Assembly (NCBI GenBank): GCA_951406725.2
Contig: OX597815.1
Coordinates: 10,416,001-10,480,000 of the forward strand
Direction: 5' to 3'
From: Octopus vulgaris
Lineage: Eukaryota
DNA length: 64,000 bases
Positions 8,250 through 60,600 of this stretch are shown here, piece by piece. Made by a program: the position numbers and the translations under genes. Each line of letters opens with the position of its first letter. Position 1 is the stretch's first letter. The notes beneath the pieces were generated by a model. It worked only from the letters and a program-made list of their open reading frames with translations, was not told where the DNA came from and did no database searches.

Positions 8250-8870
8250 GTATGTATTTCGTTTGGCATGTTGTATGTCTTGTCTTTGTTACCAGCTTTC
8301 ACCTTCCGCAAATTCCAAATTTTATTTGGGTTCGCGGGAGGTACTGCCTCCAAAGCCATATCTTGTTGTTTGAATGCTCGAAATAAGGAGTAGAAGGACA
8401 GCCGACAACTGATGAACGGTCGTTTTTTTTATGTTACTTGTCTTGTTCTCTATTTGTTTCTTTCGTTCTTTGCGCACCCAACGTTATTTTCGTATTTCAT
8501 GTTGCTTACGTTTTGTGACGTCCTGTACCTATATATGCATACCTATACACACACATATGTAAGTATGTACATATGCGTGTATATATATATGCATTTTACC
8601 TTCGAAACGCGGAGTAGACGAAACGGGGGCGACTGAAGAAGGGGAATTTTCCTTGTGTTGTATGTCTGGTACCCTGTTTTTTTTCGTTGTTTAAAAGAAA
8701 TGTCCGTTTCCATGGTTCTGTTTTTATGTTTTCGTTTCTCATTGTGTTCGACGTTTTTTTGTGGTGTCCTGTACCTATATATGCATGTATATATACATAT
8801 AGATGTAGGTACGTACATATATGTATGTATATATGCATATGTTTTATTTATTATTTTGTTAGTATATATA
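8250..8870 (+). mobile_element. Two tandem pLTR-like units of the permuted-HHR family (about 8250-8590 and 8593-8870)
   Basis: Both share cGAAA..AGTAGA..CTGANGAA, a T-rich tract and gtcctgtacctatatatgcat; related to the direct repeats at 19466 and 20302; embedded in (TA)n. Confidence 0.7.
8356..8420 (+). ncRNA. Candidate non-circularly permuted hammerhead ribozyme
   Basis: ccata-TC(8361-62)-ttgttg...gctc-GAAA(8380-83)-taagg...cgacaa-CTGATGA(8409-15)-Acggt; stem I ttgttg/cgacaa, stem III ccataT/Ataagg. Confidence 0.6.
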
Positions 8871-14372: not shown

Positions 14373-15168
14373 ACCATTGATCATGTTGTCTCCAAATGCA
14401 GTCTTCTCAATTGATCATGTTGTCTCCAAATGCAGTCTTCTCAATTGATCATGTTGTCTCCAAATGCAGTCTTCTAGCGCCTACAGAGTACCTCAACAGG
14501 CATGATAGAGCTGCATAATATATTCACTGGGTAATTTGCAAAAACCTGGATGTGCCCCATGAAAAAAAATGGTGGGAACACAATCCACCTCCTGTGCTTG
14601 AAAATGACCACATCTCACTCCTCTGGAACTTCACCATTCAAACTGACAGAAAGATAGATGCAAATAGGCCAGACATCATATTGAAAGACTTCAGACAAAG
14701 AACATGCCTCCTCATTGATATGACTGTCCCAATCGATATAAACGTATCTGTCAAGACCTACCAAAAACTGAGCAAATATAAAGATCTTGAAATAGAAATC
14801 AGCAAAATGTGGAACCTGAAGACTGAAACAATACATGTTGTCATAGGTGCCCTGGGAATGATAGCGAAAGGGGCTGATTGCTACCTAACTCAGATACCAG
14901 GAAACCCCAAAATGGCAGAAATTCAAAAGATAGTGCTCATGGGAACTGGTCATATCCTACGCAAAATACTCTCTATATAATCCCAAGGTTTAAAACAAAC
15001 TTTTTTTTAAAATTTATGTATTAGACATTCACTAGTACAACACCAAAAAGACCCCAAATATATGGCACACTAGGCATAACAACAACGTGAACTTCCAACC
15101 TGTTGTCTCTTGAGGTCTCTGGGTGAGACTTGGAGCCAACTTGTATAGACATAAAGCAAAAGTCAAAC

Positions 15169-19461: not shown

Positions 19462-19523
19462 ATATAAGATCTCAGAATTTTAATTGATTTGCTTTTCTCG
19501 GGAAGGAATTTTTTCATTCGAAG

Positions 19524-19588
19524 TATACGTCTCGCTTTTATCCTTCGAAACGTTTAGTAGATGAAACTTTAGCGACTGAAGAAGGGGA
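19524..19588 (+). ncRNA. Candidate non-circularly permuted hammerhead ribozyme
   Basis: tatacg-TC(19530-31)-tcgct...cttc-GAAA(19547-50)-cgttta...agcga-CTGAAGA(19576-82)-Agggg. Confidence 0.65.
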
Positions 19589-20358
19589 TTTTTCGTTGTG
19601 CTTATTGTCCTGTATCTCCTTTTTTTGCTTGTCTTGTTCCTTGGTTTGTGTCTATGTTTTTCGTCTCTCTATGTGTTCGACGTCCTTTTGGTGTCCTGTA
19701 CACATATATGCGTGTATATGTACATGTAGAGGTAGGTACGTACATACATGTTTATATATATGCATATATTTTATTAACATATTATACGACTAAACGCACG
19801 CACCCTATTAAGTAAGATTGTTCTGTTTATCAAGTTCGCCTTGATATTAACTCTCACGCGACTCTGCCTCTTTCTTTCTTTCTCTCCCATTCCCTTTTTC
19901 GTCCTTTTTCCCTCACTTAACTTGTCTCTTCCTCTCTCTTTCCCCCTCACTGTTCTTCATGGTCTCCTCGCACCATTCCCCTTCTTCTCTCTCTTCCTCT
20001 TGCTCCTCCTCCCCCATTCCCGTCGTCCATCTGCGACGTACTTCCGTCGTAACTGCTATCCCGTCTTTCCTCACCTGCCTTCTAAGGCCACTGGTCGACA
20101 TCTTCCTCTCTCGTCGTCCACTATAATCCAGCGTTTGCAATACTTTTTTCGTCTGGCGTTAACAGCCCTTCTTATCTTGTTCTCCTTGTCCTGTCTCTCA
20201 CTGTTATATATTTATTTTTCCACTGTTTATATATATATTTTTTACTGTTTATATGTTTGTACTGTCGTTACCGTCTTGCCTTTTTTTTACCCCTCCGCGA
20301 CAAGATCTCAGAATTTTAATTGATTTGCTTTTCTCGGGAAGGAATTTTTCATTCGAAG

Positions 20359-20423
20359 TATACGTCTCGCTTTTATCCTTCGAAACGTTTAGTAGATGAA
20401 ACTTTAGCGACTGAAGAAGGGGA
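20359..20423 (+). ncRNA. Candidate non-circularly permuted hammerhead ribozyme (second pLTR copy)
   Basis: Identical motif: TC 20365-66, GAAA 20382-85, CTGAAGA 20411-17. Confidence 0.65.
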
Positions 20424-20610
20424 TTTTTCGTTGTGCTTATTGTCCTGTATCTCCTTTTTTTGCTTGTCTTGTTCCTTGGTTTGTGTCTATGTTTTTCGTC
20501 TCTCTATGTGTTCGACGTCCTTTTGGTGTCCTGTACACATATATGCGTGTATATGTACATGTAGAGGTAGGTACGTACATACATGTTTATATATATGCAT
20601 ATATTTTATT

Positions 20611-20647
<37 letters not shown>

Positions 20648-44629: not shown

Positions 44630-45664
44630 ACATATTGTTGGTGTTCGTATGGCAGGCGCTAGCGTAACGAAAACAGCCGAAATGTTTGGCGTATCAAGAA
44701 GTACTGCCTCGAAAGTAATTACAGCCTTTGAGAAAGAGGGAAAAACCTCCTCGTCGAAACAAAAAAGCTTAAACTTTCAGATAGGGACCATCTTGCTCTT
44801 ACACGAATTGTTAGAAAGGATCACAAAAGTACAGTTACCAAAATTACTGCAGAACACCTCGACAACCCAATTTCCACAAAAGCTGTTCGCTGGGAGCTAC
44901 ACAAAGCTGGATTTCACAGGAGGGATGCAATCAGAAAACCACTACTTTCAAAAACAAAGATTGCAAAGTGTTTAGAATGGAGTAAAAACCTACAGAATTG
45001 GTCTCTAGAACAGTAGAAGAATGTTATTTTCTCGAACGAGCCATCATTTACCTTATTTCCGACCATCGGCCGAGTATACCTGTGGAGACAGCCAAAGGAA
45101 GCCTTTGATCCAGACTACTATCTTCCAACTGTTAAACATGGTGGAGGATCTGTGCTGATCTGGTGGGGAGCTATATCTTGGAAATCCGCCGGCCCAATGG
45201 TTTCCCTTCATGGCAAAATTTATAATCAAGACTATTTAAGCACTTTATCTGATCAAATTCGTCCTATGGTTGTGGAACTGTTTCCGGAGGGAAACGCAAC
45301 CTTTCAGGATGATAATGCACCAATTCACACAGCTAAAGTTGTTACTGAATGGCACGAGGAACATTTTAGTGAAATTGAACATCTTATCTGGCCACCACTG
45401 TCCCCAGATATCAATATTATTGAACATTTATGGTGCATTTTAGGAAAACAAATAAGGAGTCGATATCCTCCACCATAATCACTACAAGAATTGGAGACTG
45501 TTTTAGTTGAAGAATGGACAAGAATTCCTTTGGAAACAATTCAAACTTTGTACGAGTCAATACCTCGTAGAATTCAGGCTGTAATTACTGCCAAGGGCGG
45601 TCCTATCCCATATTAAAATAAATTTGTTTGAAATTTTAAGATATTTCCATTATTTTGTCCAACC

Positions 45665-55669: not shown

Positions 55670-57402
55670 GGTTTGTCAAGAACGTAAGAAATAACTATAT
55701 TAAGTGAAGCAGGAAGACATCATCGAAACATAAGGATCAAAGAAGATGAGATGGGCAGAATTGAGGAAATCTACATCAGGTGGCCGAACAAATTATGATG
55801 CTGTTGCTGTGATTATGATTGCAGTAGTGTTGGTAGTGATGCTTTTTGGGTTTGATATTGGTGGCTGTTTTCATGGGCTCGAGAACAGGGGTTGCAGGGG
55901 GTACAAGCGCACCTCCTGATTGGTGGGAGAGGAGTGATCAGTTGATGGGATTGTGTTGAATCAAAGGAAAACGGTTTAGGATGGTATATAAAAAATGGCG
56001 TGGAACCATTTTTGATGCATATCGAAAAGTTCGGCATCATCAAAACTGATAACTGTGTTGAGAAAGTAATTTAAAAAGGAAGAAATCATGAAAAGCAAAT
56101 GGCATGGAAAGGGAAAAAATATACTGTTTGTGAGTAAGAGAAACGTGTGCAAAGAGAGATCCAGAAGGCCGGTGGTTATGGATCCGAGGGAGTAACTTGA
56201 AGATAGAAACAGAAGCACTTATATGCACGGCATAAGAATACGCATTGAGGGCAAATTATATGAAGTGCAGAATTGCTAAAACAACTTAGCAGAATGTAGA
56301 ATGTGTGGAGAGAGTGGGGAAATAGTGTGGCACATTGTTAGTGAATGCTCGAAATTTACACAAAGTTAATATAAAAGGTGATATGACAATGTAACAAGAA
56401 TGATCCATTTGGAGCTTTGTGGAAATTATAGCCTAGAAAAATCCAAGACATGATATGACCAAATCACAGAATGAGTTATTGAGAATGAGGATTGCAAAAT
56501 TCTGTGGGTTGCAATAGTTCAGTGAGACCATCTGATTAACCATCGAAAGCATGGCATTGTTGTGGTAAACAGAAAAAAAATTGTTGTTGGCATCCTTTTT
56601 GTCTCGGGAGACAATGGAGTTGCGCATAAAGTAGTCTTGTCCGGCTTCTACATTTCATGTCCTGATACATTTCCTGCTGTGGCTGTATAGTCCTATCCTG
56701 GACAAACACTCCCTCCGGCAGGTACCGCAAATGTAGCGAAGACTGTTCCTGGCTGGTTGTAATGCCATAGTTTCTTGTTGACGTCTTTTCTTGTCTTTCC
56801 ATTTCTCCTCTCTCTCTCTGTCACTCCTTTGTATTCCCTCTCTTACGGTACGTCGCCAGTCTCCACGGTTGCCGGCAACTGCCTCCCAACCGCTAATATT
56901 GATGTTGTAGGCCTTCATGTCCCTTTTGCAAACATCCTTGTAACGTAAGAGCGGTCTACCCACAGACCTAGTACCCCTAGCAAGGTCTCCGTAGAGTATG
57001 TCCTTGGGGATTCTGTCATCTTTCATACGGCTAACATGCCCAAGCCATCTCAATACTTGTCTGATAATTGATATAGCCTGTCCTGGTGACAACAGAGTTG
57101 AAAAGAGAGAAGAAAAAATGAACAACGATGCTGAATTGAAGTGGGAAATACGCAAGTTGTGGGGAATGACGGAAGCAAACGTGATAGCAGTAGTGATTGG
57201 TGTACTTGAAAGTATCAGTGCCCAACTTCCAGCATGGCTGGAAAAGACTGCAGCGAATGTAAAGGTGGCGCGTTTACAAAAATCATTATTGCTTTGAGTA
57301 TGATTAGTAAATAGGTCTCACCTTAATCTGCTGGCTGTGGACAGCTAACAATTTCCATCATACCCAGTAAAATAAAGCTGAGATTTTTAAATAATAATAA
57401 TG

Positions 57403-60297: not shown

Positions 60298-60600
60298 GCA
60301 ATAATAATTCTCTAAAAGAGATATAGACAGTAACTGCTCGATAACATAAGGGACTAAAGCCATCTGAATATGGCTAGGGACAGGGCAGGGTGGTGGGGGT
60401 GTTACTGTTGCATTTAGCCCAGGCGAACATCGACGTCACCAGATAGGCCCGACACCGTCACGGTGTCCTAGGTTAAAGGACACCGTGACGGTGTCGGGCC
60501 TATCTGGTGACGTCGATGTTCGCCTGGGGCTAAATGCAACAGTAACACCCCCACCACCTAGCTGTCCCTAGCCATATTCAGATGGCTTTAGTCCCTTATG

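Follow-up and report, generated by a model that had tools for sequence, protein, structure and literature searches.

This locus raises the question of whether a short repeat carrying the conserved elements of a hammerhead ribozyme in a permuted strand order encodes a structured RNA and, if so, how this RNA folds and what kind of element carries it. The window, that is, the whole 64,000-nucleotide stretch of the Octopus vulgaris genome that was analysed (contig OX597815.1, positions 10,416,001 to 10,480,000), contains four copies of the motif, all on the + strand, with GAAA at positions 8380, 8604, 19547, and 20382. In the 8.4-kb copy, the named sequence elements were present where the sequence-only reading had put them, as re-reading of region 8356–8420 demonstrated: ccata (8356–8360), TC (8361–8362), ttgttg (8363–8368), gctc-GAAA (8376–8383), taagg (8384–8388), AGTAGA (8389–8394), cgacaa (8403–8408), CTGATGA (8409–8415), and Acggt (8416–8420). 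The central proposal made from these elements, that selection maintains a hammerhead-like structure of the non-circularly permuted kind in different subfamilies, is supported by covarying stems: stems I and III differ between subfamilies yet keep pairing (30 and 70 loci), and CUGANGA, GAAA, and the NUH triplet are invariant or near-invariant in an alignment of copies chosen on CUGANGA and GAAA.

The motif is real and does not arise by chance. A pattern requiring AGTAGA yields 7,255 matches in the own genome (2.8 Gb), compared with 89 for reversed-pattern controls, and without this requirement there are 10,673 matches vs. 209 in the control; about five of the first 100 listed matches of the latter pattern were judged by eye to belong to another family or to chance. 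The covariance model scores the four window copies, two of which were in its training set, at 39–125 bits against a background not exceeding 13 bits. In the Rfam scan of the window, no hammerhead family was found among the best 150 of 159 matches, which were miRNA-type, microsatellite-driven, and all under the gathering thresholds, and nested folding gave modest z-scores (from +0.4 to −2.7), with pseudoknots not recovered. The strand order of the motif is pseudoknotted and hence beyond the reach of both Rfam models and nested folding.

The part of the initial proposal that failed is stem II, which had been formed with the tail following CUGANGA. In alignment A1 (35 full-length, non-truncated copies picked from 60 descriptor rows plus four more, aligned by MAFFT blind to structure), this pairing is 76% complete and dominated by wobbles, its fifth pair fails in all 35 copies, and a control slid by −3 pairs better. 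The Watson–Crick partner of stem II sits 20–28 nt upstream of the cut site; with it, 95.4% of the cells are paired and three out of five pairs show compensatory changes. Examples of the two strands are GAAGG/CCTTC, GAGCA/TGCTC, GAACG/CGTTC, GCCCA/TGGGC, GGCTG/CAGCC, and GACACC/GGTGTC. The strand after this upstream partner pairs with the linker just 5′ of stem I, forming the stem I–stem II interaction helix (helix T), and the tail following CUGANGA has its partner still further upstream (helix P0). The insert between P0 and stem II is usually a hairpin of 24–43 nt (PH), which in families A, B, D, and F fills the gap without leaving any base unpaired. Since P0 and this insert lie between them, A9 and G10.1 are not covalently adjacent; the usual hammerhead arrangement, in which A9 is followed by the stem II strand with at most 1–2 extra nucleotides, is absent here, as that strand lies upstream. 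Owing to the upstream position of the true stem II partner, the ribozyme starts approximately 55 nt upstream of the coordinates given in the sequence-only reading.

The predicted strand order of this split-core fold is thus, from 5′ to 3′, P0, hairpin, stem II, helix T, stem III–UH–stem I, then stem II–GAAA–stem III, loop, helix T, stem I–CUGANGA, and P0. It could be described as a type-SGC hammerhead (named for the order of its blocks S, G, and C) with the stem II and stem I–II interaction strands shifted to the 5′ end and two helices placed between A9 and G10.1. Covariation shows this insertion of two helices in the model, and their fit in three dimensions is presumed.

In alignment A1, the seven-helix model accounts for 88.7% paired cells, compared with 76.1% in shuffled and 42–47% in slid controls, and 22 out of 31 pairs changed on both sides. 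Stems I (98.8%) and III (83.8%) pair with compensatory changes, as does stem II; P0 is 95% paired, with changes on both sides in only two out of five pairs, and the base of the hairpin is 92% paired, with three out of four pairs changed on both sides. Helix T, of 4–11 bp and with sequences differing across families, is low at 73%, the columns of family B being shifted by one. The cells of A1 come from related copies and are not independent events, the independent changes corresponding to approximately a dozen families; therefore the upstream strands were tested separately, given the core alone. Among 91 distinct copies chosen by stems I and III only, truncated ones included, 61 pass for upstream stem II, 59 for stem II and helix T, and 53 for stem II, helix T, and P0, whereas in 100 upstream-only shuffles of the same copies an average of 6.8, 4.7, and 3.6 copies passed, and never more than 15, 12, and 9, respectively.

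In 1.17 Mb of loci enriched for the motif, the full descriptor has 51 distinct hits, compared with zero in the reversed sequence and zero in three shuffles. It recovers families with unrelated stems (L073, L046/L055/L282, and the Naiad-type end discussed below), and the triplets of its hits are AUC, AUA, GUC, GUA, GUU, and AUU, with H never being G by construction. Two more split-core repeat families, with unrelated stem sequences, are represented by loci L005, L036, L046, L052, L055, L282, and L073:1–110; in L073, a 10-nt linker replaces the hairpin. A separate repeat family (L063:4410–4490, L083, and L099) carries a minimal hammerhead-like motif of the canonical order, C then G, and accounts for a few hits of the loose pattern.

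The copy at 8.4 kb (8258–8594, + strand, approximate ends) is an old, 5′-truncated copy of a Penelope-type repeat, subfamily B2, flanked by a TA microsatellite. Its ribozyme region, all on the + strand, begins with the 5′ strand of P0, ACCTT (8301–8305), forming four out of five pairs with the tail at 8416–8420; it is followed by hairpin PH (8306–8337), which directly joins it to the true 5′ strand of stem II, GAGGT, running from position 10.1 on (8338–8342; three out of five pairs with 8375–8379), and by the 5′ strand of helix T (8344–8349), whose partner at about 8396–8401 contains one mismatch. Next come block S (8356–8368), comprising the 5′ strand of stem III, the AUC triplet with the predicted cut after 8362, and the 5′ strand of stem I; block G (8375–8388), comprising the stem II 3′ strand TGCTC, GAAA, and the stem III 3′ strand TAAGG; the AGTAGA segment (8389–8394); and the split block C (8403–8420), with the 3′ strand of stem I, the CUGAUGA core, and the P0 3′ strand ACGGT, which is mostly AGGGT in sister copies.

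The sister copies come from the flagged subfamily, for which there are 119 pattern matches, including drifted copies of a sister family; nine sisters were found among the 30 loci taken, and six of these have an intact upstream part. Stem I of the 8.4-kb copy pairs as claimed (six out of six), and stem III, ccata/taagg, does not pair fully, owing to an A·A mismatch. The subfamily does restore the stem III pairing via its 5′ side, with tctta opposite taagg in six out of six upstream-intact sisters, and not with the tatgg/ccata combination that had been anticipated. The C after the extra A, interpreted initially as part of a C–C first pair of stem II, is private decay, as sisters with intact CUGANGA have G or a G-containing tail there in six out of six cases and C in none; this position, however, belongs to P0. 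Likewise, the upstream stem II strand is GAGCA in five of the six upstream-intact sisters, compared with GAGGT here. Given three out of five pairs in stem II, four out of five in P0, and the A·A mismatch in stem III, the suspicion that this copy is inactive is sound: judging from its sequence, it is a decayed member with private mismatches, probably dead. Broken cores are common among the B2 sisters as well. The unit initially delimited at 8595–8645 is 5′-truncated, as reported; it is a member of another subfamily, located inside the TA-rich tail of the 8.4-kb unit, rather than a tandem repeat of its neighbour. This second copy (8595–8850, + strand, approximate ends) was truncated a few nucleotides 3′ of the would-be cut site and cannot fold in cis, since P0, PH, block S, and the 5′ strand of stem II are all missing from it.

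The idea that AGTAGA is a tertiary-contact element specific to this topology is not supported, as the sequence changes from one subfamily to another and the Naiad examples from other phyla lack it. Exact AGTAGA was seen by eye in 54 of the first 100 listed matches of the pattern not requiring it, and it is present in 18 of the 35 aligned full-length copies. It is a lineage-limited sequence forming the 3′ strand of the internal loop that separates stem III from helix T, and its last GA may form tandem G·A pairs with an upstream GA, resembling a kink-turn in some families; by a loose test, GA occurs on both loop strands in 26 out of 35 copies. A kink-turn consists of a 3-nt bulge followed by tandem G·A/A·G pairs. 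This geometry, assessed by eye, is standard in the Naiad-type and L005 families, and families A, B, and D have another placement of the bulge or none; GA/GA is absent, also by eye, from the Naiads of Pomphorhynchus, Morbakka-2, Darwinula-4, and Euprymna.

The copies near 20 kb belong to a young family. The upstream one (19466–19784, + strand) is partial, beginning within hairpin PH and thus lacking the P0 5′ strand, and it is followed by a full 835-nt unit (19785–20619, + strand). The latter contains the only complete ribozyme of the split-core fold found in the window, at 20290–20422, with a GUC triplet and a predicted cut after 20366. The family is non-coding, forms arrays of two to four units with tandem units of 832–843 nt, and shows 98–100% identity over 401 nt at 40 scored genome sites. 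In contigs from four sequencing runs guessed to be RNA, one contig goes back by 835 nt, which fits a tandem array and a circle alike.

The 5′ ends of insertions of the young subfamily were mapped from a 23-mer anchor 144 nt downstream of the predicted cut; it has 563 matches, the first 100 listed of which were used, yielding 78 arrays with a mapped 5′ end, or 77 once a segmental duplicate was dropped. Fifteen of the 77 ends lie at −6 to +16 of the predicted cut vs. 2.5–3.2 expected (P = 0.0013 by a scan test over any 23-nt window, which corrects for the window having been picked after viewing the data). Just 5′ of the predicted cut the number of ends drops sharply, to only one at −30 to −7, and TA microhomology is not richer at the peak. 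The truncation of the 8.6-kb unit falls in the same zone. A smaller cluster is seen around +50 to +70, where the structure has its 3′ edge, and 44 out of 59 insertions extend past the predicted cut site. The 5′-end peak hints at cleavage in vivo at the predicted site.

As for the element itself, the copies lie in a TA microsatellite, have a common 3′ end approximately 250–340 nt past the motif and variable 5′ truncation, and include partial tandem arrangements as well as inverted 5′ copies. Targeting of (TA)n, 5′ truncation, and partial tandem and inverted copies are described as hallmarks of Penelope-like elements (PLEs) in the accessible text of Craig et al. (2021; PMC8557442). In the loci scanned, no member of the window's family was found linked to an ORF, which in a Naiad would have an N-terminal GIY-YIG and a C-terminal RT, and on sequence grounds the family is likely a non-coding Penelope-type retroelement. 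TA targeting, truncation, and tandems are common to other PLE clades and so are not diagnostic of the Naiad clade. For the Octopus Naiad-type end, there are 303 matches vs. zero for the control in the own genome; the 1.5 kb upstream of 30 such ends contained no RT ORF, and in one out of five loci, L249, decayed pieces of a Naiad ORF are located upstream of the end, separated from it by another insertion. We infer a Naiad origin for the window's own family.

Neptune-type PLEs, recovered with 781-aa ORFs by a Pfam GIY-YIG search, were considered as the parent and rejected, as their 3′ ends show no homology among the BLAST matches listed and carry a canonical-order variant of the core. These elements are abundant (L131–L134, L142, L147, and L148; e.g., L131:2906–7670) and have an upstream ORF and an intact 781-aa RT–GIY-YIG ORF; their 3′ region of approximately 1.1 kb ends in a canonical-order hammerhead-like core with UUGAUAA (U3–A8). 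Elsewhere in the window, there are a near-perfect GC-rich inverted repeat with arms of approximately 40 nt (60424–60522) and open frames at 14519–14977 (+), 45017–45475 (+), and 56658–57317 (−), which we take to resemble C-terminal fragments of LINEs and a fragment of a Tc1/mariner transposase.

The same architecture was recognized by eye, around CUGANGA hits, in at least 11 out of 54 published Naiad consensi from five phyla, namely Beroe, one Clytia, three Acropora, Morbakka-2, Pomphorhynchus, Darwinula-4, two Octopus, and Euprymna (with a degenerate stem II); for CTGAAGA, this survey covered the best 18 of 43 hits, and it may have missed line-wrapped motifs. For example, the Pomphorhynchus Naiad has P0 AGAGG/CCTCT, an 8-bp hairpin, stem II GGCCCC/GGGGCC, a 9-bp helix T, and stem I GAGGA/TCCTC, and the insert of the Clytia Naiad is a short linker, as in L073. 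In the Crassostrea, Mytilus coruscus, Thalassophryne, Eulimnadia, O. minor, Morbakka-1, and Clytia-1 Naiads, the last ~600 nt did not show the fold, and in nematode Naiads the order is canonical, C then G. In the accessible part of the supplement to PMC8557442, the spider Naiad preceding Naiad_Sdum has the S–G–C order, perfect stems I and III, and a stem II that is apparently local between S and G; a second arthropod hit there has the same local arrangement, possibly representing a second split-core topology. According to the available text of the same paper, Naiads lack canonical hammerheads, some being flagged HHR_core or HHR_half_core; several of the 11 consensi with the split-core architecture bear no more than such a flag there. 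Judging by the sequences compared, the split-core fold is likely the ribozyme reportedly missing from Naiad retroelements.

Taking all this into account, we consider it probable that the 8.4-kb repeat is a decayed copy of a high-copy, likely non-coding Penelope-type repeat, whose RNA is predicted to form a split-core hammerhead and is likely self-cleaving. Transcripts running through tandem units would be cut at the NUH triplet, yielding unit-length RNA with a 5′-OH end, with folding presumably occurring only after the tail is transcribed. A Penelope-type RT/endonuclease, probably of the Naiad clade, would then act in trans and copy the RNA, whether cut or not, into (TA)n sites. Four helices (P0, II, T, and III) would hold the two products together, so that slow release, re-ligation, or circle formation would be favoured; such joined, re-ligation-prone products fit the fact that most insertions run through the site. 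At the same time, A9 is not linked to 10.1, unlike in every hammerhead of the known alignments in the accessible material of Eckert et al. (2023), and hence activity should not be assumed. On balance, we lean towards a broader reading, in which this is a seventh natural hammerhead topology, with the CUGANGA strand docked via a two-helix junction, and an ancient, overlooked ribozyme of Naiads from ctenophores to cephalopods, which cuts in vivo and whose interlocked products favour circular templates by re-ligation.

Three other readings of the data have to be weighed. If the copies were ordinary repeats without selected RNA structure, their pairing would come from shared descent and chance; in line with that, shuffle controls overstate significance for related copies, nested folding z-scores are modest, and hammerheads are missing from the best 150 of 159 Rfam matches. 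Yet slid controls fall to 42–47%, and the complete set of helices recurs in an unchanged order in families with unrelated stems and in Naiads from five phyla; this reading is thus largely refuted, and we regard it as very improbable. Another reading, which we consider quite unlikely, retains a plain type-SGC hammerhead, in which stem II is formed with the tail and there is one extra A, the upstream pairings being a competing or regulatory fold. In families A, B, D, and F, in which the two folds could interconvert, most copies do gain three to four pairs from the tail; one column of the tail-type stem II changes from C–G to G–U, its covariation score exceeds that of the shuffles, and HRIMA-1 has an extra U at the same spot. 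However, the tail pairing is mostly U–G wobble, with the fifth pair in none of the 35 copies and a slide of −3 performing better; it is reduced to one or two pairs in L046/L055 and the Naiad-type family; and stem II from the tail is impossible in the Pomphorhynchus, Morbakka-2, and Darwinula-4 Naiads. Moreover, this fold frees the P0a and IIa strands, which pair poorly with each other (54%); for the same reason, a strand-swap conformer was rejected.

It is also possible, though we think it unlikely, that the fold is real and kept mainly as a scaffold for binding of the PLE protein or for template positioning, with cleavage absent, very slow, or protein-dependent, and the 5′-end peak reflecting RT stalling. 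As a precedent, the hammerhead of the Poseidon PLE was reported, in the accessible part of PMC11167929, to cut only with protein and to be dispensable for insertion in vitro; the 44 of 59 insertions that run through the site and the smaller cluster of ends at the 3′ edge of the structure are consistent with such a role. On the other hand, CUGANGA, GAAA, and the U–H triplet recur across families and phyla, and the sharp fall in the number of ends is located immediately 5′ of the predicted cut, whereas stalling would be expected to place it at the 3′ edge.

The predicted split-core hammerhead matters in several respects. In the accessible text of Eckert et al. (2023; PMC10085705), block C, that is, CUGANGA with the flanking stem strands, is assumed not to be interruptible, and the present fold breaks this assumption. 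Ribozymes of the non-circularly permuted kind, known from unidentified environmental RNAs, are thereby placed in animal chromosomes, at approximately ten thousand copies, and the fold offers a direct answer to a published puzzle, namely that Naiads reach a very high copy number apparently without hammerheads. As standard descriptors and Rfam miss the fold, censuses of invertebrate ribozymes are likely incomplete. Finally, the young, near-identical 835-nt family with insertion ends at the predicted cut makes the role of the ribozyme in Penelope-type transposition testable. A search of the openly accessible literature returned no report of the split-core fold in animal genomes or in Naiads; an earlier published helix insertion at this junction is conceivable.

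Among known systems, the closest is type SGC/HRIMA-1 (hairpin-ribozyme-in-metatranscriptome-associated; Eckert et al., 2023; PMC10085705), compared here on the basis of the accessible text and supplement. It shares the order of blocks S, G, and C, the short linker between stems I and II, the helix joining the far ends of these stems, and the intact CUGANGA, GAAA, and UH. In type SGC, however, the stem II and interaction strands directly follow CUGANGA, and in the HRIMA-1 rows of the supplement they stand right after CUGAUGA plus one U, whereas here they lie 5′ of block S, with P0 and the insert bridging A9 and G10.1; since block C is not intact, the fold is not classed as type SGC, and the split core is outside the six published hammerhead permutations. 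Type SGC is, moreover, described in that text from metatranscriptomes only, and from no genome of a known organism, whereas here we deal with a chromosomal animal repeat. Insertions into the core of natural hammerheads are tolerated, those given in the available text of Perreault et al. (2011; PMC3088659) being of 1–2 nt, compared with whole helices between A9 and 10.1 here.

On the side of mobile elements, Naiad PLEs, as far as described in the available text of PMC8557442, likewise insert into (TA)n, are truncated at the 5′ end, and occur as inverted copies and partial tandems, and the 3′ ends of the 11 consensi listed above have the RNA architecture of the window's family; the latter differs in being non-coding, in having no ORF link, and in a ribozyme sequence unlike that of the Octopus Naiad end. 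Non-LTR retrozymes, according to the accessible part of a preprint (bioRxiv 10.64898/2026.07.22.740005), are similar in consisting of tandem non-coding units with one ribozyme each and in being proposed as non-autonomous derivatives of PLEs. The ribozymes of non-LTR retrozymes and PLE pseudo-LTRs are, in the available text of this preprint, PMC11167929, and PMC6765202, circularly permuted type I hammerheads, often minimal and acting as dimers, whereas the split-core fold is not of type I but comprises approximately 125–135 nt and is monomeric and heavily pseudoknotted.
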